In this document: one piece after another, positions 5,754-18,818 of the stretch | Layout of the letters: every line of letters starts with the position of its first letter | Position numbering within the stretch: position 1 is the first letter of the stretch | NCBI GenBank assembly: GCA_032161105.1 | Contig: JAVHTD010000009.1 | Source of the DNA: Candidatus Thermosaccharophagus tengchongensis | GTDB taxonomy: Bacteria > Armatimonadota > Fervidibacteria > Fervidibacterales > Thermosaccharophagaceae | Length of the DNA: 64,000 nucleotides | Strand: one strand, 5' to 3' | Program-made: the position numbers and the translations under genes | Notes under the pieces: model-generated | What the model was told of the DNA's origin: nothing | Databases searched by the model: none | The model's input: only the letters and a program-made list of their open reading frames with translations

Positions 5754-5782
5754 TTGGACCGACATTTTGAATGCGCTATAAT
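5754..5782 (+). promoter_or_regulatory. Putative sigma70 promoter of the riboswitch-led operon
   Basis: TTGGAC (5754-5759), 17-nt spacer, TATAAT (5777-5782), about 70 nt upstream of the riboswitch. Confidence 0.6.
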
Positions 5783-5851
5783 GAAGTGACGATGTTTCTG
5801 CATTGCGCCAGTAGGAGGAACTTCAACTGCTCACAATCAATGCGGTGCGAA

Positions 5852-6032
5852 GCGGGTGGATGAGCGGGAAGACGGTGCAAATCCGTCGCTGCCCCGCAGC
5901 TGTGACCGGGGACGAAACCCGTATGGCGGTGCATTTAACTTGGCACCGTCAAAAGCCACTGGTGGGGCTGATCCCCACTGGGAAGGCACGGGGAGTAGGA
6001 TGATCCGGGAGCCAGAAGACCGGTCCACCCGC
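5852..6032 (+). ncRNA. Cobalamin (B12) riboswitch aptamer
   Basis: GGGAA-GACGGTGCAAATCCGTC-GCTGCCCCGCAGCTGT core, GCCACTG...GGGAAGGC, B12 box GAGCCAGAAGACC; P1 GCGGGTGGA/TCCACCCGC; upstream of btuF/cobUTS. Confidence 0.93.
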
Positions 6033-6347
6033 GGGAATGCTCGTGCCGCCTCGCGGGAGGGCGATGAGCATGCTCAAAGAGCGGTTTGGCAGACCCCCGG
6101 CAAGCTGCTAAGGGAGCTTCCAAGGATGGGGATGGCTGCCGGGGGTAATTGCTTTATGCACCGCAGCAGCGCCGCATGAATACCCCCGCTGTGTAGGAAG
6201 TGCAGCTACTCCCCATCTGATGCCTTGGCTTTCTCCGGCAGCAAAGCTTTCGCCATCCATACTCTCAGCCTTGCCGGTGCACTAACACAGTCAAACGCGC
6301 TCACCGGTTGTTTGGCATAACCAAAACCAAAAGCACGGAGGTGCGTC

Positions 6348-7157
6348 GTGATGAGGCGCTATAGGTGCAGCTCAAATTTGGGCTTTGGCGCAGCAAGATG
6401 CACAGGACAACAGACGCCGGGAGCATTCACGCTAATTGAGCTGCTGGTGGTGATTGCCATAATCGCCATCTTGGCAGCGATATTGTTCCCGGTGTTTGCA
6501 CGGGCGAGGGAGAAGGCAAGGCAAGCTTCATGTCAGTCCAACCTGAAGCAGATCGGTCTGGCTTTCCTAATGTATGTCCAAGACTACGATGAAATGGCGA
6601 TGCCAGTGCAAGTCAGTGGCGCCGGAAAAACATACTACTGGTGGGGCAGTTGGGATGGGAGCACATTAAATGAACAAGAGGGGCTTCTTTACCCCTACAT
6701 GAGGAACACGCAAATTAGGGCATGTCCATCATTCCCTGAGACATTGCGCACAGCGTTGGGGCTCACAGGATATGGGTATAACTACGCCTACCTATCTCCA
6801 TACCTTCCACCCGACTGGGATGTGCATCCGGTCTCCATAGCCAAGATTCAAAACCCGGCTGAGACGGTTCTTATGGCGGACGCAGCCCGGATAAATACAT
6901 GGAGCTACCCTCAACCAACTTTGGAAGGCAATGCCTACCTTGACCCGCCTTCTTACAGTTACCCTGGCTTTCACGCTCGCCACAATGAGACGGGAAATGT
7001 CCTATGGATGGATGGGCATGTGAAAGCGAGGAAACCGGTATACCGAACCGGGACTTTCGGATGGGGATATAACGCCGATGACTTTCGCAAGAACAATCTC
7101 GGCGACATTGATGAGGATGGCGACCTGACCACAGATGAGCTGTTTGACCTGAACTGA
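6348..7157 (+). CDS. Prepilin-type N-terminal cleavage/methylation protein with DUF1559 and H-X9-DG motif
   Basis: [67 protein letters not shown] before start. Confidence 0.92.
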
Positions 7158-7302
7158 AGCGCAATGCTCACGCCCTGTGCAAGGTGGCTGAGGAATGATT
7201 GAGTGAGACTCCCCTGCGCCTTTGATGCTGGGGCGCAAACAGCCCGTGCAGTTCTAACTGACGGAATGCTGCTGCCAGCACAGACGGTTGAAATGAAAAG
7301 GG

Positions 7303-8241
7303 GTGGGCAATGTGAACGATAGATGTCACTGTGCTGGTGGGCTGATAGCGGTGCTTCTGATGGCGCAAATCTGCGCCCTCTGCACCGCTGAGACAGCTCG
7401 TCACGGGTGCGCAGTCAAAGATGATTTGGGAAGGCTCATCAAACTTGATGTGCTGCCGAAACGCATCATATCGCTCTCGCCGAGCACAACCGAGATACTC
7501 TTTGCCATAGGCGCCGGCAGGCTCGTCGTTGCCGTTGATGATTGGTCCGACTATCCACCTGAAGCACGCCGCTTGCCGAAGGTGGGTCCTTTTATGCGCC
7601 CAAGCATTGAGGCTGTAGTTAAGCATCACCCGGATTTGATCGTGCTCGCATCAGTTGTGCTTCCGATGAGTGAGGTTGAAACGCTTGAGGGGAGGGTGCG
7701 TGCGCCAATATTCGTCATGTCCCCAAGGAGGGTCATTGACATAGTGAGCAGCATTGAGAGAATCGGGATGCTCGTCGGTAAGCAAAAGGAGGCCAAGCTG
7801 GTTGCCGATAGGATGCGCTCCGACATAAAACGCATCACGGCGATGCAACAAAAGCGCTTCAGGAAGCCGAGTGTGTTCATAGAGGTCTCGCCGCCACCAA
7901 GTCTGATGGGCGTCGGCGCCAACAATTTCATTGATGATGCCATTGAGCTCGCTGGCGGATACAACATCATGAGGCGGCTCAAATCAAGGAGTGAATTCCC
8001 AACGGTCAGCCTTGAGGTGCTGATGGCGCTTAACCCAGATGTTTACATTTTGGCGAGGCACGGTCGTTTGAATTCGGCTCGTGCCCTTTGCGAGGTCAGG
8101 GGGAGAAGCGGCTTTGAGCAACTCAAAGCGGTGCGCATGGGTAGAGTATACGCGCTCAACGCTGATTTGATTTTCAGACCCGGACCGAGGATCACATCGG
8201 GGATAGCTGAACTGCACCGCTTCCTTTATGGACGCAAGTGA
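7303..8241 (+). CDS. btuF: Cobalamin/corrinoid ABC substrate-binding protein (helical backbone family)
   Basis: DDLGR...PKRIISLSPSTTEILFAIGAG, SDYPPEA, AGGYNI, RPGPRI; riboswitch and cob context. Confidence 0.85.
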   Translation: MGNVNDRCHCAGGLIAVLLMAQICALCTAETARHGCAVKDDLGRLIKLDVLPKRIISLSPSTTEILFAIGAGRLVVAVDDWSDYPPEARRLPKVGPFMRPSIEAVVKHHPDLIVLASVVLPMSEVETLEGRVRAPIFVMSPRRVIDIVSSIERIGMLVGKQKEAKLVADRMRSDIKRITAMQQKRFRKPSVFIEVSPPPSLMGVGANNFIDDAIELAGGYNIMRRLKSRSEFPTVSLEVLMALNPDVYILARHGRLNSARALCEVRGRSGFEQLKAVRMGRVYALNADLIFRPGPRITSGIAELHRFLYGRK

Positions 8242-8282
8242 TGTTTGGTGCGGGCATGATGTTTGTGCCACAGTGTGGGGGT

Positions 8283-8843
8283 ATGAGCATTGTGGGATTA
8301 ATCACACTACTACTTGGTGGGGCGCGCAGCGGGAAGAGCAAATTCGCTGTTGAGCTTGCAAGGGGCAATGGAAAAGTGGCTTTCATAGCCACAGCAACAT
8401 GCACCGATGGCGAAATGGAAAAGCGAATTGAAGCGCACAGGCGTTCTCGCCCGAGGGAGTGGCTGACCGTTGAAGAGGCGCTCAATGTATCCGAATGGAT
8501 TGATGAGCATGGCGATGAATTTGATGTGGTGATAATTGACTGCATCACGCTATGGCTCAGCAATTGCCTTGCATTTGGCATGAGCGATGAAGCGATATTG
8601 GACGCCGTTGAGAAGCTGCTCAATGCGTGCAAGGGGCGCAAGTGCAACGCCATCATAGTGAGCAATGAAGTTGGTATGGGAGTTGTCCCAATGACGCACA
8701 TTGGCAGGCGATTTAGGGACTTGCTCGGTGAAGCAAATCAAAAGCTCGCCTCATGTGCTGATTGTGTATACTGGCTTTGCGCCGGCATACCGGTGCGTTT
8801 AAAGGGGCAAGATTTGCGCAACTGCCCTCAGGTGAATGAATGA
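8283..8843 (+). CDS. cobU: Adenosylcobinamide kinase / cobinamide-phosphate guanylyltransferase
   Basis: GGARSGKSKFA, RIEAHR..RP, DCITLWLSN, VSNEVGMGVVP, RFRDLLG. Confidence 0.95.
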   Translation: MSIVGLITLLLGGARSGKSKFAVELARGNGKVAFIATATCTDGEMEKRIEAHRRSRPREWLTVEEALNVSEWIDEHGDEFDVVIIDCITLWLSNCLAFGMSDEAILDAVEKLLNACKGRKCNAIIVSNEVGMGVVPMTHIGRRFRDLLGEANQKLASCADCVYWLCAGIPVRLKGQDLRNCPQVNE

Positions 8844-8866
8844 AGCGGTGGGCGTGGTGATGCGAT

Positions 8867-9931
8867 GTGGACAACAAAAGCCTTCAAGCACTCTTGAACG
8901 CTATAAAGCCGTTGGATAGGCTATCAATGGTTAAAGCGAGTGAGCGCATGGACAGGCTAACCAAGCCGCTCGGGAGCCTCGGCAAGCTGGAAGACATTGC
9001 CGTGCGTGTTGCCGGAATTACCGGGACACCATTGCCGAGCGTGGAAGGCAAGGCTGTAGTTGTGTTTGCAGCTGATCATGGTGTCACCGCTCAGGGCGTG
9101 AGCCTTTACCCGAGGGAAGTTACGGCGCAAATGGTGATGAATTTCGTCCGTGGCGGCGCGGCGATAAGCGTGCTGAGCAGGCATTGCGGTGCAAGGCTTG
9201 TGGTGGTTGATGTTGGGGTTGCGGCAGAACTGCCACAGCATGATGGTTTGATCTTGAGGAAGGTTGCATGGGGCACAAGGGATCTTTCAACCGAACCAGC
9301 AATGACGCTTGAGCAGGCGATGGAGGCGATTGGCATCGGCGTTGAAGTGACCAAGATGCTTATCAACGATGGCGCACGCATGATCGCCCTCGGTGATATG
9401 GGGATAGGCAACACAACGCCGAGCGCAGCCATTGCTGCGGTGCTGCTCGGTAAGCCAGCAAGGGATGTGACGGGGAGGGGCACGGGGTTGGATGATGAGC
9501 GCTACGAGCATAAGGTCGCTGTTATTGAAGCAGCATTGAATTTGCACCGTCCAACCCCGGATGACCCAATTGGAGTGCTCACAAAAGTTGGCGGGCTTGA
9601 GATTGCGGCGTTAATTGGCGTTGTGATAGCTTGTGCGGCGGGGCGAATCCCGGTCGTGCTTGACGGGTTTATCACAACCGCTGCAGCGGCACTCGCATTC
9701 AAGATGCAACCGCTTGTGAGAGAATACATGTTTGCCGGGCATATCTCAATGGAGCCGGGGCACCGCCTGTTGCTTGACTGGCTTGGGCTTGAGCCAATAT
9801 TGAATCTCAACATGCGCCTCGGGGAGGGAACTGGTGCTGTCTTGGCGATGCACCTGATTGACGGTGCGTGTAAGCTGCTCTCACAGATGGCTACATTTGA
9901 TGAGGCGGGTGTTTCCGGTCCGGTGGCGTAA
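8867..9931 (+). CDS. cobT: Nicotinate-nucleotide-dimethylbenzimidazole phosphoribosyltransferase
   Basis: LTKPLGSLGKLE, FAADHGV, GDMGIGNTT, LDGFI, MRLGEGTGA. Confidence 0.96.
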   Translation: MDNKSLQALLNAIKPLDRLSMVKASERMDRLTKPLGSLGKLEDIAVRVAGITGTPLPSVEGKAVVVFAADHGVTAQGVSLYPREVTAQMVMNFVRGGAAISVLSRHCGARLVVVDVGVAAELPQHDGLILRKVAWGTRDLSTEPAMTLEQAMEAIGIGVEVTKMLINDGARMIALGDMGIGNTTPSAAIAAVLLGKPARDVTGRGTGLDDERYEHKVAVIEAALNLHRPTPDDPIGVLTKVGGLEIAALIGVVIACAAGRIPVVLDGFITTAAAALAFKMQPLVREYMFAGHISMEPGHRLLLDWLGLEPILNLNMRLGEGTGAVLAMHLIDGACKLLSQMATFDEAGVSGPVA

Positions 9932-9934
9932 GGC

Positions 9935-10726
9935 ATGTTTGTGAAAGCCATATTGTGCAGGTTGCGCAGGGCTGTTAATTGGCACCTTAACACCATATGC
10001 TGTGCCATCTCTTTCCTCACGATTGTGCCGATGCCTCGCCCACACTCGGAAAGCGCCATCAAGATGTGCAGTTGGCTCTTTCCATTTGTCGGGTTGCTCA
10101 TTGGTGCTCTAATAGCCACGGTGGACAGCCTGCTTCTTCTGCTCATGCCCGAAAGCGCGACGAGTGCCATAACCGTCGGAATGCTTGCGGCTATCACTGG
10201 TGGACTTCACCTTGATGGGCTGGCAGATTTGGCGGATGCAATTGGCAGCCTTAAGGACAGGCGGGGGCAACTTGAAGTGATGCGTGATGCGCACATCGGC
10301 GCTTTGGGGGCTGCGAGTGTGTGCATTGTGCTGCTGTTAAAGTATGCCCTCATAGCCTCCGTTAATCCGCCTCTGAGGTGGGTTGCACTCTCGCTTGCGC
10401 CGATGCTCGGGAGGTATTGCGCTGCGCTATCAATGCTCCTCTTCCCGTATGCGCGCTCCGAAGATGGGATAGCCTTTCGCATGAGAGAACACAGGATGGA
10501 GCAACTCATCGCGGCAACGGCATACACAGTCATAGCAGTGCATGCTGCTGCAAGCTATGTCGGGCACATCAGCATGTGGTTGTGCATCGTGATCACCCTC
10601 CTCATTTCACTGCGATTGACGAAGAGGTTTGGTGGTCTGACCGGCGATTGCTATGGGGCGACGGTTGAAATATGTGAGACGGCATCGTTATTCGCCTTTG
10701 CCATGCTGCAAAAGGTTTTCCTGTGA
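9935..10726 (+). CDS. cobS: Adenosylcobinamide-GDP ribazoletransferase (cobalamin synthase)
   Basis: TGGLHLDGLADLAD, MRDAHIGALG, FGGLTGDCYGA. Confidence 0.95.
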   Translation: MFVKAILCRLRRAVNWHLNTICCAISFLTIVPMPRPHSESAIKMCSWLFPFVGLLIGALIATVDSLLLLLMPESATSAITVGMLAAITGGLHLDGLADLADAIGSLKDRRGQLEVMRDAHIGALGAASVCIVLLLKYALIASVNPPLRWVALSLAPMLGRYCAALSMLLFPYARSEDGIAFRMREHRMEQLIAATAYTVIAVHAAASYVGHISMWLCIVITLLISLRLTKRFGGLTGDCYGATVEICETASLFAFAMLQKVFL

Positions 10727-10875: not shown

Positions 10876-11094
10876 ATGGAGTTCACCACGGAGCGAAGAA
10901 AGCGCTTTGATGGAGTTGAGGTTGAAATACTCGGAGAGACATATGAGCCCGGTAAGCCGCAGCCGGAAGGGGAGGGCGACTGGAAGAGCAAATTGCAGAC
11001 GATAGAGGAGATTGAGAAGTATCTCCGTTACGCTGAGCGCTACTGGTATAGCACCGAATGGTATGGCTCCGAGAAGCGCAAGACACCCGCTTAA
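10876..11094 (+). CDS. 72-aa hypothetical protein immediately preceding acsD
   Basis: SD GAGGAG at 10862-10867, ATG 10876; charged/aromatic protein-like composition. Confidence 0.7.
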   Translation: MEFTTERRKRFDGVEVEILGETYEPGKPQPEGEGDWKSKLQTIEEIEKYLRYAERYWYSTEWYGSEKRKTPA

Positions 11095-11145
11095 CCTGCA
11101 GCTGTCCATTCCTTGCCTCAGATGATGAAGCGCAATTGGGGGTGA

Positions 11146-12099
11146 ATGGCTGTGAGTTTAAACATCCCGAAGGAGACCTATGTCGGTCGGATAAGGGAAA
11201 TCACGATTGGCAGCGGTGATAAGGCGGTGAAAGTTGGCAACGAAGGCTGCCTACCGTTCTACACATTTGAGGGCGAGATGCCAAACCCGGTCCGCATAGC
11301 AATGGATGTGTATGACTATCCACCTGAGGGCTGGGCGCCTGCGTTGCTTGAAGTTTACGGTGATGTGCTCAACGACCCAATTGCGTGGGCGAAAAAATGC
11401 GTTGAGCAATTTGGCGCTGAGATGATTTGCCTCCAGCTTGCGAGCACTGACCCTTACGGGATGGATAGACCATCCGAGGAGGCGGCACGGATAGCAAAGC
11501 AAGTTGCTGATGCAATTGATGTGCCGCTCATAATCTGGGGGTGTGGCAACGAGGCAAAGGATGTAGAGACGCTGAGGCTTGTTTGCGAGCTGTGCGAGGG
11601 TAAGCGAGTGGTGGTGGGACCGGTCGTTGAAAAGATCTACGCAAAAGTTGGCGCGCAGGCGATAGCTTATGGGCAAGTTGTGGCAGCCTCCTCGCCAATT
11701 GACATTAACCTCGCAAAGCAACTTAACATACTGCTCTCCAACCTCGGCGTGCCGGATGAGCAAATTTTGATTGACCCGACCGTTGGCGGGCTTGGCTATG
11801 GGATTGAATACACATATTCGGTGATGGAACGCATCAGAATCGCAGCCCTGCTACACGAGGATGAGCGGCTTGCCTTCCCGATGATTTGCAATGTCGCAAA
11901 GGAAGTTTGGGGCACAAAGGAAGCCAAGTTGAGCGAGGAGGAAGCGCCACTGCTTGGAAAGGCGAAGGAAAGGGGTATCCTGATGGAAGCAATCACAGCA
12001 ATGCTGCTTGCGCTCGCCGGCGCTGATATACTCATCATGCGCCATCCTGACGCAGTTGAGCTTGTCCGGAAGGCTTTGAACGAATTGATGAATGCCTAA
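11146..12099 (+). CDS. acsD: Corrinoid iron-sulfur protein small subunit
   Basis: SPIDINLAKQLN, DPTVGGLGYGIEY, MERIRIAAL, LAGADILIMRHP. Confidence 0.95.
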   Translation: MAVSLNIPKETYVGRIREITIGSGDKAVKVGNEGCLPFYTFEGEMPNPVRIAMDVYDYPPEGWAPALLEVYGDVLNDPIAWAKKCVEQFGAEMICLQLASTDPYGMDRPSEEAARIAKQVADAIDVPLIIWGCGNEAKDVETLRLVCELCEGKRVVVGPVVEKIYAKVGAQAIAYGQVVAASSPIDINLAKQLNILLSNLGVPDEQILIDPTVGGLGYGIEYTYSVMERIRIAALLHEDERLAFPMICNVAKEVWGTKEAKLSEEEAPLLGKAKERGILMEAITAMLLALAGADILIMRHPDAVELVRKALNELMNA

Positions 12100-12150
12100 T
12101 TGCGCAAAGTGCCTTACGGCGCGATCAATCGGCAAAGGATGGTGATTGAG

Positions 12151-14094
12151 ATGCCTCAAAATAATTACAGCATAGACCCAGCAGTTGTTGAGCTCCTTGA
12201 GCGAGCAAAAAGGGACGGTGTAATGACAGCCTTTGACAGGGCTGAGGCAATGCGCCCATGCCCAATTGGAAGGGACGGAATATGCTGTAAGCTATGCGCT
12301 ATGGGACCGTGTCGCCTGGTTGCACGGAAGGGCGAGGAGCCACCGAGAGGGGTATGCGGTGCAACTCAGGACACAGTTGTGGCGAGGAACTACCTCCGAA
12401 TAGTGGCGGCTGGATGCGCCGCACATGCTGATCACGGGAGGGCTGCAGCCGAGCTTTTGCTTGCGGTAGCTAATGGTGAGACGAAGGACTACGAAATTAA
12501 GGACGAGATGAAGCTGATCAAGCTCGCCATGGACTTCGGGGTTGAGGTATCGGGGCGACGAATTGAGGACATAGCAAGGGATGTGGCGATGTTGGCGCTT
12601 GAGGAGTTTGGGAAGCAGGAGGGCGAATTGGCATTCATCAAGCGTGCACCATTGCGCCGCCAACAGCTTTGGCGAGAACTCGGCATTGTCCCGCGAGGCA
12701 TTGATAGGGAGATAACCGAAGCGTTGCACAGGACACACATGGGCACTGACCAAGATTACGAGAACTTGCTCATGCACGCTGCAAGGGTAGCGCTTGCCGA
12801 CGGCTGGGGTGGCTCAATGCTTGCAACCGAAATTCAGGATGTGCTTTTTGGCACTCCCTACCCAACCGTAAGCCAAGTCAACCTCGGCGTTTTAAAGCCA
12901 GACCATGTCAACATAATCGTGCACGGTCATGAGCCATTGCTCTCGGAAGTAGTCGTGCTCGCTTCAAGGGAGCCGAAGCTTGTAGAGCTCGCGAGGAGCA
13001 AGGGTGCAAAGGGAATCAACATAGCTGGTATATGTTGCACTGCCAATGAGGTGCTAATGCGCCATGGCATACCGTTAGCCGGAAACTTCCTGCAGCAAGA
13101 GGCTGCTCTCCTCACTGGCGTGGTTGATGTAATGGTTGTTGATGTGCAGTGCATAATGCAATCGCTGCCTGAGATAGCTGAATGCTATCACGGGCGCATC
13201 ATAACGACCTCACCGAGGGCGAAGATAAGGGGCGCAACACACATTGAATTCAACGAGCACAATGCGCTTGACTCCGCAAGGAAGCTCATTGAGATCGCAA
13301 TTGATGAGTTTGAAAAGCGCGGTGGGAATGGCTATGTGCCAAACTACGCCGTTGATTTGGTAGCCGGATTCAGTCATGAGACAATCACCTATCTGCTCGG
13401 CGGTCTGTTCAGGGCATCCTATCGCCCATTGAATGACAACATCATCAACGGGCGCATAAGAGGGGTTGCCGGCGTAGTTGGATGCAACAATCCGAGAGTG
13501 ACTCAGGACAGCGCCATTGTGACGCTCGTAAAGGAACTCATAAAGAACGATGTTCTCGTCCTTGAGACGGGCTGCGCGGCTATGGCGTGTGCGAAAGCCG
13601 GATTGATGAACCCAGATGAAGCCCTGAAATATACAGGCGATGGTCTTGGTGAGGTCTGTGAGGCGGTTGGCATACCGCCAGTCCTTCATATGGGTTCGTG
13701 CGTTGACAACAGCCGAATATTGATTGCAGCAACAGCGATGGTCAAGGAGGGCGGCTTGGGCGATGACATAAGCGACCTACCCGCAGCCGGTGCAGCACCG
13801 GAATGGATGTCGGAAAAGGCGATAGCCATAGGCATGTATTTCGTTGCGTCGGGCGTCTTCACAGTTTTCGGTGTTCACTATCCGACGCTCGGAAATGAGG
13901 CTGTCTCCAACTGGCTCTTTAGGGATATGGAAAAGCTGTTCAAGGCAAGGTGGGCTTTTGAGCCAGACCCTGAGGAGATGGCGAAATTGATGATCAACCA
14001 CATTGACCAGAAGCGCAAGGCACTCGGCATTGATAAGGCGAGGGAGCGAATACTGTTTGACATGGCCATGAGGCGGCAGTTGGAGGCGGTTTAA
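12151..14094 (+). CDS. cooS: Anaerobic Ni,Fe carbon monoxide dehydrogenase catalytic subunit (AcsA)
   Basis: D/B-cluster CPIG..GICCKLCAMGPC and CG; C-cluster ligands in HGHEP, GICCTANE, DVQC, GCNN, TGCAA, GSCVDNSR; catalytic AHADH and MSEKA. Confidence 0.97.
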   Translation: MPQNNYSIDPAVVELLERAKRDGVMTAFDRAEAMRPCPIGRDGICCKLCAMGPCRLVARKGEEPPRGVCGATQDTVVARNYLRIVAAGCAAHADHGRAAAELLLAVANGETKDYEIKDEMKLIKLAMDFGVEVSGRRIEDIARDVAMLALEEFGKQEGELAFIKRAPLRRQQLWRELGIVPRGIDREITEALHRTHMGTDQDYENLLMHAARVALADGWGGSMLATEIQDVLFGTPYPTVSQVNLGVLKPDHVNIIVHGHEPLLSEVVVLASREPKLVELARSKGAKGINIAGICCTANEVLMRHGIPLAGNFLQQEAALLTGVVDVMVVDVQCIMQSLPEIAECYHGRIITTSPRAKIRGATHIEFNEHNALDSARKLIEIAIDEFEKRGGNGYVPNYAVDLVAGFSHETITYLLGGLFRASYRPLNDNIINGRIRGVAGVVGCNNPRVTQDSAIVTLVKELIKNDVLVLETGCAAMACAKAGLMNPDEALKYTGDGLGEVCEAVGIPPVLHMGSCVDNSRILIAATAMVKEGGLGDDISDLPAAGAAPEWMSEKAIAIGMYFVASGVFTVFGVHYPTLGNEAVSNWLFRDMEKLFKARWAFEPDPEEMAKLMINHIDQKRKALGIDKARERILFDMAMRRQLEAV

Positions 14095-14182
14095 AGGGTT
14101 ACATGGATGCCAAATTTGTGGCTGGTCAAAGAAGCATTTGAAAGGCAGCCCATGAGCAGCGCCTGTGGGGAGGGGATATGCG

Positions 14183-16387
14183 ATGTCAAAGTTGATTTGC
14201 TCTGCAGCAATCAGGGGCGCACATAAGATAGTGGCGAGGGCTGAACAAAAGTGGCGAGAGGCGATGGATAGGTGGGGGGCTAAGCAGGAAGTCGGCTTTC
14301 CAAACACAGCATATTACTTGCCAATCATCTACGGCATAACTGGCATCGCTGTCAAAACGCTCGGCGACATGGAGCAAGTCCTTAAGCTGTGCAGGAGATT
14401 GCTCCCGCCGCCGGTCAGGGAGAAGGTGCACCTTCCGTATCTTGCGCCGGCGCTTGATGCTGGCATGGCTACATTCTTCGCTGAGGAGATAATTGAGGCG
14501 ATCAAGTATCTTGAGAATCCGAACATGTATGTTGCGAGCGCGGAAGAGCCAACCGATGAGAACATCTGGCTCGGTGCAGCCGATGATATCATCATGCGAA
14601 AGAGGGGCGTTGAATTCGTTGATGGAACTGCGCCCGGCTTCGCGGCGATACTCGGTGCACCGCCGGATGTTGATACAGCGGTTCGCATAGCCAGAGAGCT
14701 TCAGGAGAAGAACCTGTATGTCTTCATGTGCTCGGATAACAACGGCGTGAGGATGGCTGAGCAACTTGTGGAAGCCGGCGTGCAAATTGGATGGACGACA
14801 AGGCTTGTTCCATTTGGTCCGGATACCTCGGCGACCGTCTTCTCAATCGGCTTTGCCACGAGGGTCGCAATGGCATTTGGTGGTATAAAGCCCGGCGAGT
14901 ATAGGCGCATCCTCATCTACAACAAGGATAGGGTTTTTGCGTTTGTCCTTGCGCTTGGCTTTGTGACCGACGAATGGTATGCTAATGCGGCTGGGGCAAT
15001 AAATTGGGGCTTCCCGACGATAGCCGACACACCCATACCGCAAGTTCTCCCGACGGGCATTTGCACATACGAACATGTTGTCTCAAATGTGCCACACTCG
15101 GAGATCGTTTCAAAGGCAATTGAGGTGCGCGGTCTCAAGGTGACTGTGACCAAGGTGCCAGTGCCAGTTGCCTATGGACCAGCGTTCGAAGGCGAGAGGG
15201 TGCGTAAGGCTGATCTGTATGTTGAATTTGGTGGCAATAGGTCGCTTGCACTTGAACTTTGCAGGATGCGGCGCATGGATGAAGTGCAAGACGGCAAGAT
15301 TGAGATCGTCGGTCCAGACATTGATACTGCCGAAGAGGGCGGTGCAATGCCGCTCGCAATACTCGTTGAGATTGCCGGAAGGAGGATGCAGGAGGACTTT
15401 GAGCCGATACTTGAGCGTCAGATACATCACTTCATCAACTACGCTCAGGGCATCTTCCACATGGGGCAGCGTGATATAGTTTGGTTGCGCATAAGCAAGG
15501 GCGCATTCAATCAGGGCTTCAGGCTCAGACACATTGGAGAGATACTACACGCAAGGTTCCATCAGGACTTTGGAAACATTCTGGACAAGGTTCAAATCAC
15601 CATATTCACCAACGAGGAGGATGTGCGCAGGTTGCTTGATGAGGCACGGGCAATATACCATGCAAGGGATGCGCGCATGGAGGGCATGAGAGATGAGGAT
15701 GTGGACATATTCTACTCGTGTGTGCTCTGTCAATCATTTGCGCCAACGCATGTCTGCGTCATAAGCCCAGAGCGCCCGGGATTGTGCGGCGCATACACAT
15801 GGCTTGATGCGAAGGCAATGTATGAAGTCAATCCGGAGGGACCAAACCAACCAGTCCAATATGGTGAGTGCATAGACCCGCTCAAGGGTGCATGGAAAGG
15901 CGTGAACGAGTTCGTTAAGAAAGCCTCAAGGGGTGCAATTGATGGCTATAACTTCTACAGCGTTGTGGATAGCCCTATGACAACATGCGGTTGCTGTGAG
16001 TGCATAACTGCTGTCTTGCCGTTGTGCAACGGCGTCATGACTGTAAACCGAGAATACATGGGCATGACGCCGTGCGGTATGAAGTTCACGACGCTCGCCG
16101 GAACAATCGGCGGTGGAGTCAGCACGCCGGGGTTCGTCGGGCATGCGAAGATTTGGATTGTGCAAAGGAAGTGGCTTCAAGGTGATGGCGGGATAAAGAG
16201 GCTCGTTTGGATGCCCAAGATGTTGAAGGAGGAGCTCGGTGAGAGGTTGGTCAAGCGCCTCGCCGAAGTCGGGATGTCGGTTGACATGATTGCCGACGAG
16301 ACAGTCGGCACTACCGAAGAGGAGATATTGCCATACCTGCAGGAGAAAGGGCATCCGGCGCTCGAGATGCCGCCGATAATTGGGTGA
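14183..16387 (+). CDS. acsB: Acetyl-CoA synthase (bacterial type with N-terminal domain)
   Basis: FPNTAYYLP, GPAFEGERVR, GQRD, A-cluster CVLCQSFAPTHVC, PERPGLCGA, PMTTCGC, RLVWMPK. Confidence 0.97.
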   Translation: MSKLICSAAIRGAHKIVARAEQKWREAMDRWGAKQEVGFPNTAYYLPIIYGITGIAVKTLGDMEQVLKLCRRLLPPPVREKVHLPYLAPALDAGMATFFAEEIIEAIKYLENPNMYVASAEEPTDENIWLGAADDIIMRKRGVEFVDGTAPGFAAILGAPPDVDTAVRIARELQEKNLYVFMCSDNNGVRMAEQLVEAGVQIGWTTRLVPFGPDTSATVFSIGFATRVAMAFGGIKPGEYRRILIYNKDRVFAFVLALGFVTDEWYANAAGAINWGFPTIADTPIPQVLPTGICTYEHVVSNVPHSEIVSKAIEVRGLKVTVTKVPVPVAYGPAFEGERVRKADLYVEFGGNRSLALELCRMRRMDEVQDGKIEIVGPDIDTAEEGGAMPLAILVEIAGRRMQEDFEPILERQIHHFINYAQGIFHMGQRDIVWLRISKGAFNQGFRLRHIGEILHARFHQDFGNILDKVQITIFTNEEDVRRLLDEARAIYHARDARMEGMRDEDVDIFYSCVLCQSFAPTHVCVISPERPGLCGAYTWLDAKAMYEVNPEGPNQPVQYGECIDPLKGAWKGVNEFVKKASRGAIDGYNFYSVVDSPMTTCGCCECITAVLPLCNGVMTVNREYMGMTPCGMKFTTLAGTIGGGVSTPGFVGHAKIWIVQRKWLQGDGGIKRLVWMPKMLKEELGERLVKRLAEVGMSVDMIADETVGTTEEEILPYLQEKGHPALEMPPIIG

Positions 16388-16420
16388 TGCAGACCGAATG
16401 ATGTAGAGGGGGCATGAGAT

Positions 16421-17776
16421 ATGCCATTGAGTGGCATTGAGATATTCAAGCTGCTTCCAAAAAAGAACTGCGGTGAGTGTGGCGTGCCAACATGCCTTGC
16501 ATTTGCAATGAACTTGGCGCAGGGCAAGGCTGAACTTGATGCATGCCCATACATCTCCGATGAGGCAAGGGAAAAGCTGGCTGAGGTTGCTGCACCTCCA
16601 ATTAGGGAAGTTGTCATAGGCAGTGATGGCAGAGTTGTGAAAGTCGGCGGTGAAACCGTCCTCTTCAGGCACGAGAAGACATTCGTCAACCCGCCCGGAA
16701 TAGCCATGCTCATCAGCGATACGATGGACGATAGCGAAATTGATGCTCGCATTGACAGGATCAACAGCATGGTCTATGACAGAGCCGGATTCATATTGCG
16801 CCCTGAGATAGCCGCGCTGCGCTGCGACTCCGGCAGCAAGGAAAGGTTCACCGATGTAGTCGGGCGGATCATCAGCAGTTCAGATTGCAGCATCATGCTC
16901 ATCAGCTATGACCCATCAATTCAATGTGCTGCGCTTGAGGTATGCAAAGCGAAGCGCCCGCTAATTTACGCCGCCACCAGTGAGAACATTGATGAGATGA
17001 TGGAGCTGGCAAAGGAGTATGCATGTCCGCTGGCTGTAAAGGGGAATGGCTTGAGCGAAGTTGCGAGGTTGACATCAACAGCCATTCAAGCCGGCTTAAA
17101 GGACCTCCTAATTGACACCGGCGCACGCTCGCTCAAGGAGGCTTTCGTGCATCACATAATGCTGAGGAGGGGCGCCCTCATAGGCAAGATTAGGGAGCTT
17201 GGCTTCCCGACGGTTGTCATGGCGTGCGAAATGAGCGACGACCTTTTGATGCAGACGCTCATTGGGGCGATATTCATTGCCAAGTATGGCGGCATAATTG
17301 TCCTCTCGGATTTCCAAGGGCACTCGCTTTATCCGCTCCTGCTTGCGAGGATGAACATTTACACAGACCCGAGAAAGCCGCTTGCAGTTGAAGAGGGCAT
17401 CTACGAGATAGGAAAGCCAACGGAAGAATCGCCCGTGCTGCTGACCTGCAACTTTTCTCTCACATACTTCCTCGTCTCAACCGAGATAGAAAACAGCCGA
17501 GTGCCATCATGGTTGCTGGTCAAGGATACCGAGGGGCTTTCGGTGATGACCGCATGGGCTGGCGGCAAATTCACAGCGGATGTGATTGCTCCATTCATCA
17601 AGAAGTGCGGCATTGAGAGCAGAGTTAAGCACCGCAAGCTGATCATACCGGGCTATCTTGCACCCGAGAGCGGCGCGCTTGAAGAGGAACTTGGCGGTGA
17701 ATGGGAGATACTTGTCGGTCCAAGAGAAGCAGCAAACATACCTGCATATTTGCGCACCGTCTGGCAAGCTGCCTGA
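16421..17776 (+). CDS. acsC: Corrinoid iron-sulfur protein large subunit
   Basis: LPKKNCGECGVPTCLAFA [4Fe-4S] domain, GGETVLFRHEKTF, NIYTDPRKP, NFSLTYF, GPREA. Confidence 0.97.
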   Translation: MPLSGIEIFKLLPKKNCGECGVPTCLAFAMNLAQGKAELDACPYISDEAREKLAEVAAPPIREVVIGSDGRVVKVGGETVLFRHEKTFVNPPGIAMLISDTMDDSEIDARIDRINSMVYDRAGFILRPEIAALRCDSGSKERFTDVVGRIISSSDCSIMLISYDPSIQCAALEVCKAKRPLIYAATSENIDEMMELAKEYACPLAVKGNGLSEVARLTSTAIQAGLKDLLIDTGARSLKEAFVHHIMLRRGALIGKIRELGFPTVVMACEMSDDLLMQTLIGAIFIAKYGGIIVLSDFQGHSLYPLLLARMNIYTDPRKPLAVEEGIYEIGKPTEESPVLLTCNFSLTYFLVSTEIENSRVPSWLLVKDTEGLSVMTAWAGGKFTADVIAPFIKKCGIESRVKHRKLIIPGYLAPESGALEEELGGEWEILVGPREAANIPAYLRTVWQAA

Positions 17777-17939
17777 GGTCAATGCAACCTCGTCATAAAG
17801 GTTGCTGAATGCGAATTGAAGGGTGCCCTATGTGGGGCGGGATCTTCCATTGCAGTTAACTCCGCGCCTTAAGTGAGCTTGTTTGGCGATGGCTATATTG
17901 CACGGGCGGGAAAATCGCCCTATGCAGGGGTGGTGAGAG

Positions 17940-18818
17940 ATGATCCTTGTGGGTGAGAACATCAACATCATGTCAAAGACGATAGGGGCTGCGATAAGAA
18001 ATCGCGATGCGGCTACAATACAGCAGCTTGCAAGGCAGCAAGCGGGAGCCGGGATGGATTACCTTGACCTCAACATTGGGCCGGCGAGGAGAGACGGTCC
18101 CGAGCTTATGGAGTGGATAGTTAAGACGGTGCAAGAGGTCGTTGAATTGCCGCTGTCACTTGATACAACGAATCCGGATGCAATGGAAGCCGGCTTGAAG
18201 GTGCACCGTGGTAAGGCGATCATCAACTCAATCTCACTTCAACCGGAGAGGCTTGAGAGGATGCTTCCACTTGCCAAGCAATATGGCGCTGCAGTTGTCG
18301 GACTGCTGTGGGGCACCGAGGGAATGCCGAGGGATGCGGATGACCGTGCCGCATTATGCGTTGAACTTGTCCAAAGGGTTATGGATGCCGGCGTCCCGCC
18401 GGAGGACATCCTGATTGACCCCATTGTCACACCAGTTTCAGCCGACATAGGGCAGGTGATTGCGGTAGTTGAGTTCATGAGCGCCTTTAAGGACCTTGCG
18501 CCCGGATGCAAGTCCATCGTCGGCTTATCAAATGTCTCCAATGGAACTCCAACTGAGCTGCGCCCACATTTGAATCGTGCATACCTTGCGATGCTCATGA
18601 AGTATGGCTTAGATGCGGCGATAGTCAACGCTTTTGATGAGGAGTTGGTTAAGCTCGCAAGGGGTGAGATGCCGGAGATACTGAACTTGGTTCACCGCAT
18701 AATGGATGGCGAAAGATTTGATGTGAACGAGTTGCCCGAGAAAGAGCGCATATACGCAAAGACGACGCTTGTGCTCATGGGAAAAGTCGTTTACTCGCAC
18801 TCGTGGCTTGAAGCCTGA
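17940..18818 (+). CDS. acsE: Methyltetrahydrofolate:corrinoid/iron-sulfur protein methyltransferase
   Basis: Pterin-binding TIM barrel: GENIN, LDLNIG, LSLDTTN, IINSIS, IDP, GLSNVS; follows acsC. Confidence 0.9.
   Translation: MILVGENINIMSKTIGAAIRNRDAATIQQLARQQAGAGMDYLDLNIGPARRDGPELMEWIVKTVQEVVELPLSLDTTNPDAMEAGLKVHRGKAIINSISLQPERLERMLPLAKQYGAAVVGLLWGTEGMPRDADDRAALCVELVQRVMDAGVPPEDILIDPIVTPVSADIGQVIAVVEFMSAFKDLAPGCKSIVGLSNVSNGTPTELRPHLNRAYLAMLMKYGLDAAIVNAFDEELVKLARGEMPEILNLVHRIMDGERFDVNELPEKERIYAKTTLVLMGKVVYSHSWLEA

Follow-up and report, generated by a model that had tools for sequence, protein, structure and literature searches.

A DUF1559 pilin-like protein leads the cobalamin riboswitch operon of Candidatus Thermosaccharophagus tengchongensis and is a candidate stand-in for BtuB-type receptors in Armatimonadota

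The sole cobalamin riboswitch of the genome leads a pilin-like gene

We analysed a stretch of 64,000 nucleotides (the window) from contig JAVHTD010000009.1 of Candidatus Thermosaccharophagus tengchongensis (Armatimonadota; assembly GCA_032161105.1), in which a cobalamin riboswitch is followed on the plus strand by a gene for a DUF1559/H-X9-DG prepilin-type protein and then by btuF-, cobU-, cobT- and cobS-type genes. The riboswitch aptamer (5837–6042) is the only RF00174 element of the whole genome; it scores 87.8 bits with the Rfam covariance model (cut-off 31.5) and is full length, covering model positions 1–189. Upstream lies a sigma-70-like promoter candidate, TGGACC-16-TATAAT (5755–5782), which scores 10 of 12 in a promoter scan that is weak by itself (3 sites versus 1.0±1.0 in shuffled sequence); sense RNA reads start just 3' of it, in the 5793–5823 bin. 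The first gene (6351–7157, alternative GTG start at 6348) is preceded by a GGAGG ribosome-binding site (6337–6341) and encodes a protein of 268 residues. Next come the genome's only PF01497 gene, for a BtuF-like periplasmic binding protein (7303–8241), then cobU, a cobinamide kinase/guanylyltransferase gene whose start codon is uncertain (8238–8843), cobT (8867–9931) and cobS (9935–10726), the last three over the cut-offs of their models. The initial annotation had read the locus as promoter, cobalamin riboswitch, pilin-like first cistron and btuF-cobU-cobT-cobS, an order that the Rfam and domain models and the adjacent RNA start bear out.

The leader of the operon (5793–6226) is transcribed in one hot-spring metatranscriptome, where 34 reads at ≥97% identity (33 of them at ≥99%), all in a single orientation, reach a peak depth of 22. 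In the same metatranscriptome no leader-type read extends past 6226 up to 6600 and none falls in the pilin-specific coding region; several of the reads over the pilin's first codons are loose-ended and likely derive from paralogs. At 90% likeness, the downstream acs genes are covered at a depth of 0.8–1.7, positions 6636–9305 at zero and 9306–10106 at 0.06–0.7. These data represent one sample and 5% of one run (two further runs gave 0 and 1 reads), and their source is probably a near strain, as 15 of 19 reads differ at position 5939. Reads confined to the leader are compatible with a switched-off riboswitch or with a persistent leader fragment, in a sample in which the B12 level was not varied. 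Between aptamer and gene, a perfect 10-bp inverted repeat (6093–6102/6137–6146) followed by AATTGCTTT forms a candidate attenuator in the expression platform (6093–6146); a terminator scan did not call this repeat, and the predicted RNA fold of 6030–6365 has a z of −1.75.

The first gene encodes a member of the DUF1559 family with a predicted pilin fold

The protein is over cut-off on all four models that define this kind of pilin, N_methyl (PF07963), DUF1559 (PF07596), TIGR02532 and TIGR04294, and is one of 33 DUF1559 paralogs in the 2.74-Mb genome. Its class III signal or N-methylation motif GA|FTLIELL (6423–6488; PF07963 and TIGR02532 over cut-off) has the expected F+1 and E+5 at the putative cleavage site, with Ala rather than Gly at −1, and this prepilin motif is nearly invariant across relatives. 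The H-X9-DG motif (H211 to D221, G222, H223; 6981–7019) scores 22 bits with TIGR04294 (cut-off 19) and is followed by a 45-residue extension. In its domains the protein is no BtuB: it consists of N_methyl and DUF1559 only, with neither a plug nor a 22-strand beta-barrel, and the claim developed below is that it works like BtuB.

Two sequence features had been taken as clues to function, and neither proved informative. The motifs YYWWGSW, YGYNY and GDIDEDGD are all present in the protein. Its share of aromatic residues ranks only 15th among the 33 paralogs and is ordinary for the family, and we rejected aromatic richness as a hint of function. The acidic DxDxDG tail (7101–7154), which may bind Ca, is typical of the window pilin's sub-clade only: 9 of the 14 members of that sub-clade show the pattern, against just 2 of the 46 riboswitch-led pilins outside it and 2 of the 32 further paralogs in the genome. 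The tail is therefore not diagnostic, and we rejected it as a required B12 determinant.

An AlphaFold2 model built from 38 alignment rows (predicted local distance difference test score, pLDDT, 94; predicted template modelling score 0.88) has a 51-residue helix (residues 4–54) and a beta-rich head. The top 18 structural matches found with VIA-align are all pilins or pseudopilins, the best at Z 5.9, a value that falls below the chance band of 8 given for the tool; Foldseek returned no match to the model at E ≤ 0.001. The predicted fold weakly backs the description as pilin-like and carries no information on a ligand.

Most close relatives share the riboswitch, and the riboswitch-led pilins fall in one branch

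Among 301 Armatimonadota genomes searched, 78 hold the window pilin's domain at E ≤ 1e-30. As the initial annotation had anticipated, the association with riboswitches held among these orthologs: 59 genomes have a riboswitch immediately upstream, which exceeds the Rfam cut-off in 50 of them, another 6 have one at a distance of up to about 4 kb, and 13 have none. Three of the six distant cases were opened, and in all three nrdA-nrdB stand between switch and pilin. In the remaining 13 genomes the riboswitch invariably heads a sister DUF1559 pilin, two of these switches being under cut-off, and no cobalamin match came up when 10 loci with switch-less clade genes were scanned with Rfam at looser settings. 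We also examined 13 GTDB loci at 51–88% identity, which partly overlap the 301-genome sample and are counted separately: in 11 of them a cobalamin-clan riboswitch immediately precedes the gene, in one the upstream DNA is missing, and in one no riboswitch reaches the cut-off. The controls were 11 loci of weaker paralogs, none of which carries a riboswitch, and the window genome itself, where 33 paralogs go with a single one. Since btuF-cob neighbours are absent from most close orthologs, the conserved unit is the switch plus the pilin; other neighbours in relatives are btuFCD-like, cob/cbi, metE and nrd genes.

Several variant arrangements were seen among these loci. In some genomes of a neighbouring family (loci L059–L061) the operon behind the riboswitch begins with nrdA and nrdB, and the pilin gene comes third. 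In genomes of family f27 (L066–L075, L092–L098) a sister pilin has the switch and none is detected at the close ortholog; at L074 the switch-less gene overlaps a gene for PepSY-TM, a frequent neighbour of iron receptors. Two genomes of the window's own genus, G008 and G024 (L205, L206), have the same operon at the same locus, with BtuF-like proteins 67–68% identical to the window's, and a pilin from another sub-branch. The head domain of the L206 pilin is 37% identical to that of the window pilin, and the first gene thus appears to have been exchanged in situ within the genus. At L204 (170–3899) the order is riboswitch, pilin, DUF6580 and BtuF-like gene. A DUF6580 domain and a close pilin relative are also fused in one open reading frame of 423 residues (P0010), a fusion that may be an artefact of gene calling; DUF6580 may be a subunit of a B12 importer.

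In a quick tree of 109 proteins (for some loci, rows were entered only from 60 profile bits upwards, a filter that removed two unrelated later-gene pilins), all 60 riboswitch-led pilins, three of them planctomycete, fall inside one branch of 70 rows that excludes all 32 other paralogs of the window genome. Whether such pilins form a clade was a check named in the initial annotation; the branch that holds them here is moderately supported (Shimodaira–Hasegawa-like approximate likelihood-ratio test, SH-aLRT, 82). Conserved residues specific to this subfamily include G111, F128, G140, Y143, Y147, H208 and G251. A second phylum, that of a Phycisphaera-titled genome, was sampled with 61 genomes. 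Of the 31 switches examined there, 3 stand in front of a pilin within the 1.5 kb that could be read, and these three proteins score 95–112 bits on the subfamily profile versus at most 53 for ordinary paralogs; behind most of the other switches lie genes for secreted proteins or receptors. With this profile, 1250 representatives are retrieved at 1e-10, a count that does not include genomic context.

Switch-led pilins and switch-led TonB receptors are nearly mutually exclusive

BtuB-type TonB receptors are the standard B12 route over the outer membrane, and the initial annotation had proposed that the pilin replaces such a receptor and anticorrelates with btuB. We searched RF00174 in 80 further genomes without the narrow clade and read the genes behind each switch. 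In an even sample of 97 genomes (G000–G096) from 37 families, where a TonB receptor was counted if it lay within 4 kb of a switch, a pilin of the subfamily is switch-led in 69 genomes and a TonB receptor in 20, with both arrangements in 2 and neither in 10. Two genomes with both compare with 14 expected under independence (Fisher 1e-10, a value that is overstated because related genomes are not independent). The pilin is a later gene in 2 of the 10 genomes with neither arrangement. By family, 24 of the 37 are pilin-only, four are receptor-only and four contain both states. These counts rest on 27–28 scored candidates per genome and, genome-wide, on RF00174 without RF01689, so that they may lack some weak switches.

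The BtuB model TIGR01779 points the same way: it gives 147–356 bits in all 20 genomes with a switch-led receptor and lower scores in 34 of the 35 pilin-only genomes that have some TonB receptor (11 of those 34 have no match at all), the curated cut-off being reached by none of the 56 genomes scored. A simpler count of any TonB receptor, present in 20 of 78 genomes with the pilin domain versus 169 of 223 others, holds for the narrow clade and is misleading, as 37 of the 69 pilin-led genomes own some receptor; we rejected it in favour of the riboswitch-led test. The proposed replacement therefore stands as near mutual exclusion behind B12 switches and not as an absolute rule, given that 6 of the 158 riboswitch-searched genomes hold both arrangements.

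This pattern could instead reflect lineage history, with the pilin serving some other B12-regulated role such as capture of cobalt, capture of lower ligands or adhesion to B12 producers. Cobalamin riboswitches in the sampled genomes do also control the non-transport genes metE, nrdAB and nrdD, and the genomes compared are related to one another. However, pilin and receptor states alternate inside four families, the same subfamily stands behind riboswitches in a second phylum, and the window genome, which gave no CbiC match, would have little use for cobalt. We regard such a role as decidedly unlikely.

The genome appears to depend on imported corrinoids and encodes secretion machinery

The genome is 97.4% complete and contains the diderm markers Omp85 and LptF/G; a cultured member of Armatimonadota is described as diderm by cryo-electron microscopy in a passage of one report (PMC11535203). 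Its corrinoid users include the adenosylcobalamin-dependent ribonucleotide reductase NrdJ (TIGR02504 over cut-off), a corrinoid Fe-S protein and a further corrinoid protein, and PduO is encoded as well. Searches of the genome with MetE, NrdB, NrdD, CobQ, CbiB and CbiC as queries all returned no match. With B12-dependent enzymes present and CbiC, CbiB and CobQ without a match, the organism appears, from its gene content, to be an obligate corrinoid salvager. A nearby cobamide consumer is the acetyl-CoA synthase cluster at 11146–18818 (+), with corrinoid Fe-S protein subunits and a methyltransferase. The salvage operon lies immediately 5' of this Wood-Ljungdahl cluster, likewise in G008 and G024, and a short unannotated open reading frame of about 72 codons occupies 10877–11095, between cobS and acsD.

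The import genes comprise the single PF01497 gene, one full FecCD permease plus a fragment, and an ATP-binding cassette (ABC) ATPase, spread over three contigs. The BtuF-like protein scores 82.9 bits with NF002894 (cut-off 234), and the full permease and the best ATPase fit corrinoid models best, also below cut-off. No Plug domain, TonB C-terminal homolog or BtuB-model (TIGR01779) match was found in the genome. The initial annotation had noted the lack of btuB, btuC and btuD at the locus: the window's contig indeed has no FecCD permease and the genome no TonB receptor, whereas genes resembling btuC and btuD lie at other places in the genome. One ExbB/ExbD pair lies between TPR and DUF4159 genes (contig C6, L079:3006–9558) in this genome without a TonB or TonB-receptor match. 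A weak beta-barrel match (contig C29, 19.7 bits) was considered as a hidden BtuB and rejected: it has no Plug, adjoins lptF/G, has look-alikes of the LptD type, and its single-sequence fold reaches a pLDDT of 31.

The machinery invoked in the initial annotation, akin to a type II secretion system (T2SS) or type IV pilus (T4P), has its counterpart in four secretins, a GspD/E/F/G cluster (T2SS) and a prepilin-peptidase-family gene. In several other genomes, secreted-looking proteins without a Pfam family follow the pilin in riboswitch operons (L011:6549–7136, L132:2560–3240, L180:2063–2710, L130–L134, L144, L150); some of them have weak PEP-CTERM tails, under the Pfam cut-off, and they are candidate new B12 binders. 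With such neighbours and the GspD/E/F/G cluster in mind, the pilin could be a specificity subunit of a type II secretion pseudopilus that binds no B12 itself and exports or displays separate scavengers when B12 is scarce. Six of these secreted proteins used as queries have no homolog in the window genome, however, most close loci lack such a neighbour, and a secreted scavenger would still require a route over the outer membrane. We consider an adaptor role of this kind quite unlikely.

A proposed pilin-based route for cobamides

From its sequence and context, the product of 6351–7157 is likely a corrinoid-capture pilin. We propose that it binds cobamide or cobinamide and does BtuB's job within a secretin-linked pseudopilus that carries the vitamin over the outer membrane to BtuF, a reading that we hold to be somewhat better than an even bet. 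At low B12 the operon would be read, the riboswitch presumably being repressive in the presence of the vitamin; the prepilin would be cleaved and join the pseudopilus as a minor subunit; its head would bind a corrinoid at or beyond the secretin; and the vitamin would be released in the periplasm to BtuF, after which the unlinked BtuC/BtuD-like ABC importer, CobU/T/S and PduO would finish import and salvage. The pilin is placed at the outer-membrane step mainly because it alternates with an outer-membrane receptor and not with BtuF.

That same alternation bears on a scheme in which the protein never enters a pilus, its helix anchoring it in the inner membrane, where the head would trap B12 that enters by some pore and pass it to the importer. 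The Pfam name SBP_bac_10, and sections of two papers that call the family solute-binding (PMC2754498, PMC4807772), agree with an anchored binder, as do the open reading frame that fuses DUF6580 to a close pilin relative and the lack of assembly genes in the operon. Against it, the exchange is with the outer-membrane receptor and not with BtuF, BtuF-like genes often come after the pilin, and the prepilin motif is nearly invariant. We think this scheme unlikely on balance.

Several observations weigh against a pilus-based capture route. The operon contains no secretin or assembly gene and so ties the pilin to no particular machine. No known B12-binding fold is listed among the VIA-align or Foldseek matches, the pilin has no PDB sequence match, and the best structural Z is just 5.9. 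The branch that unites the riboswitch-led pilins includes 10 rows without a detected switch and has an SH-aLRT of just 82 in a quick tree. The exclusion of receptors is inflated in its Fisher values by the relatedness of genomes, and the six genomes with both arrangements (G069, G084, G107, G116, G134, G205) argue against a strict swap, four of them lying outside the even sample and all four in family f5. Some other TonB receptor is found in more than half of the pilin-led genomes, as counted above, and the ExbB/ExbD pair of the window genome leaves room for a TonB-like route with an unrecognised receptor.

The capture reading can be extended to the whole family, which we do only tentatively and judge a little more apt to fail than to hold. 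DUF1559/H-X9-DG proteins may share a single secretin-linked pseudopilus that imports nutrients independently of TonB-dependent receptors, each protein being an exchangeable receptor subunit with its own ligand specificity. The B12-regulated subfamily would then supply the receptor for B12 in most Armatimonadota and in some planctomycetes, and the paralogs that each genome holds by the dozen would receive other nutrients.

Comparison with known systems

To our knowledge, no described B12 uptake system uses a pilin. We found no paper that joins DUF1559 with cobalamin, or a cobalamin riboswitch with a prepilin, although regulon tables in supplements or subscription journals may already list the gene. 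If true, the proposal would describe a pilus-type import route for a small molecule, and pilin-based B12 uptake would be a new kind of route, unless competence pili or archaeal bindosomes are counted as the same kind. In most sampled genomes of a diderm phylum, a pilin and not a receptor stands behind the B12 switch. A very large family of unknown function, with 33 copies in this genome, thereby gains a specific candidate ligand that is coloured and purchasable, together with a clean genetic test.

The closest parallel, whose arrangement alternates with that of the window operon across the phylum, is the BtuB-TonB and BtuFCD system of the E. coli type. The two have in common the regulator, the first-gene position, a BtuF/BtuCD-like importer downstream and salvage by CobU/T/S. 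They differ in that the window protein has 268 residues and a predicted pilin fold in place of a plugged beta-barrel, in a genome without a TonB or Plug match. Within the DUF1559/H-X9-DG family, to which the protein belongs by all four models, the window subfamily is set apart by its riboswitch, its own conserved residues and the extension after H-X9-DG; in a passage of one study the function of the family is called unknown and 68 paralogs are counted in Planctopirus (PMC10632474).

Among pilin-related systems, Neisseria ComP is a ligand-binding minor pilin that acts in DNA uptake. It has a pilin core in common with the window protein, which is proposed to work on the same principle, as a minor subunit that lends ligand specificity to a shared secretin-linked filament. 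The structural match to ComP is weak, however (PDB 5hz7, Z 4.4), and the ligand proposed here is a small cofactor that would be handed to an ABC importer instead of ComEA/ComEC. The Sulfolobus bindosome consists of sugar-binding proteins with class III signal peptides that work with ABC importers, and thus resembles the proposal in sending nutrient-binding proteins by a pilin-type signal and pairing them with such importers; it is archaeal, has no outer membrane and uses a classical solute-binding fold, whereas the window model is a pilin fold. The MUL2 pilus locus of Akkermansia, for which part of a recent report gives a mucin/glycan substrate and a proposed role in attachment (PMC13174399), likewise ties a pilin-type locus to nutrient acquisition in a diderm, but belongs to another pilin family, serves a mucin/glycan substrate and has no riboswitch.

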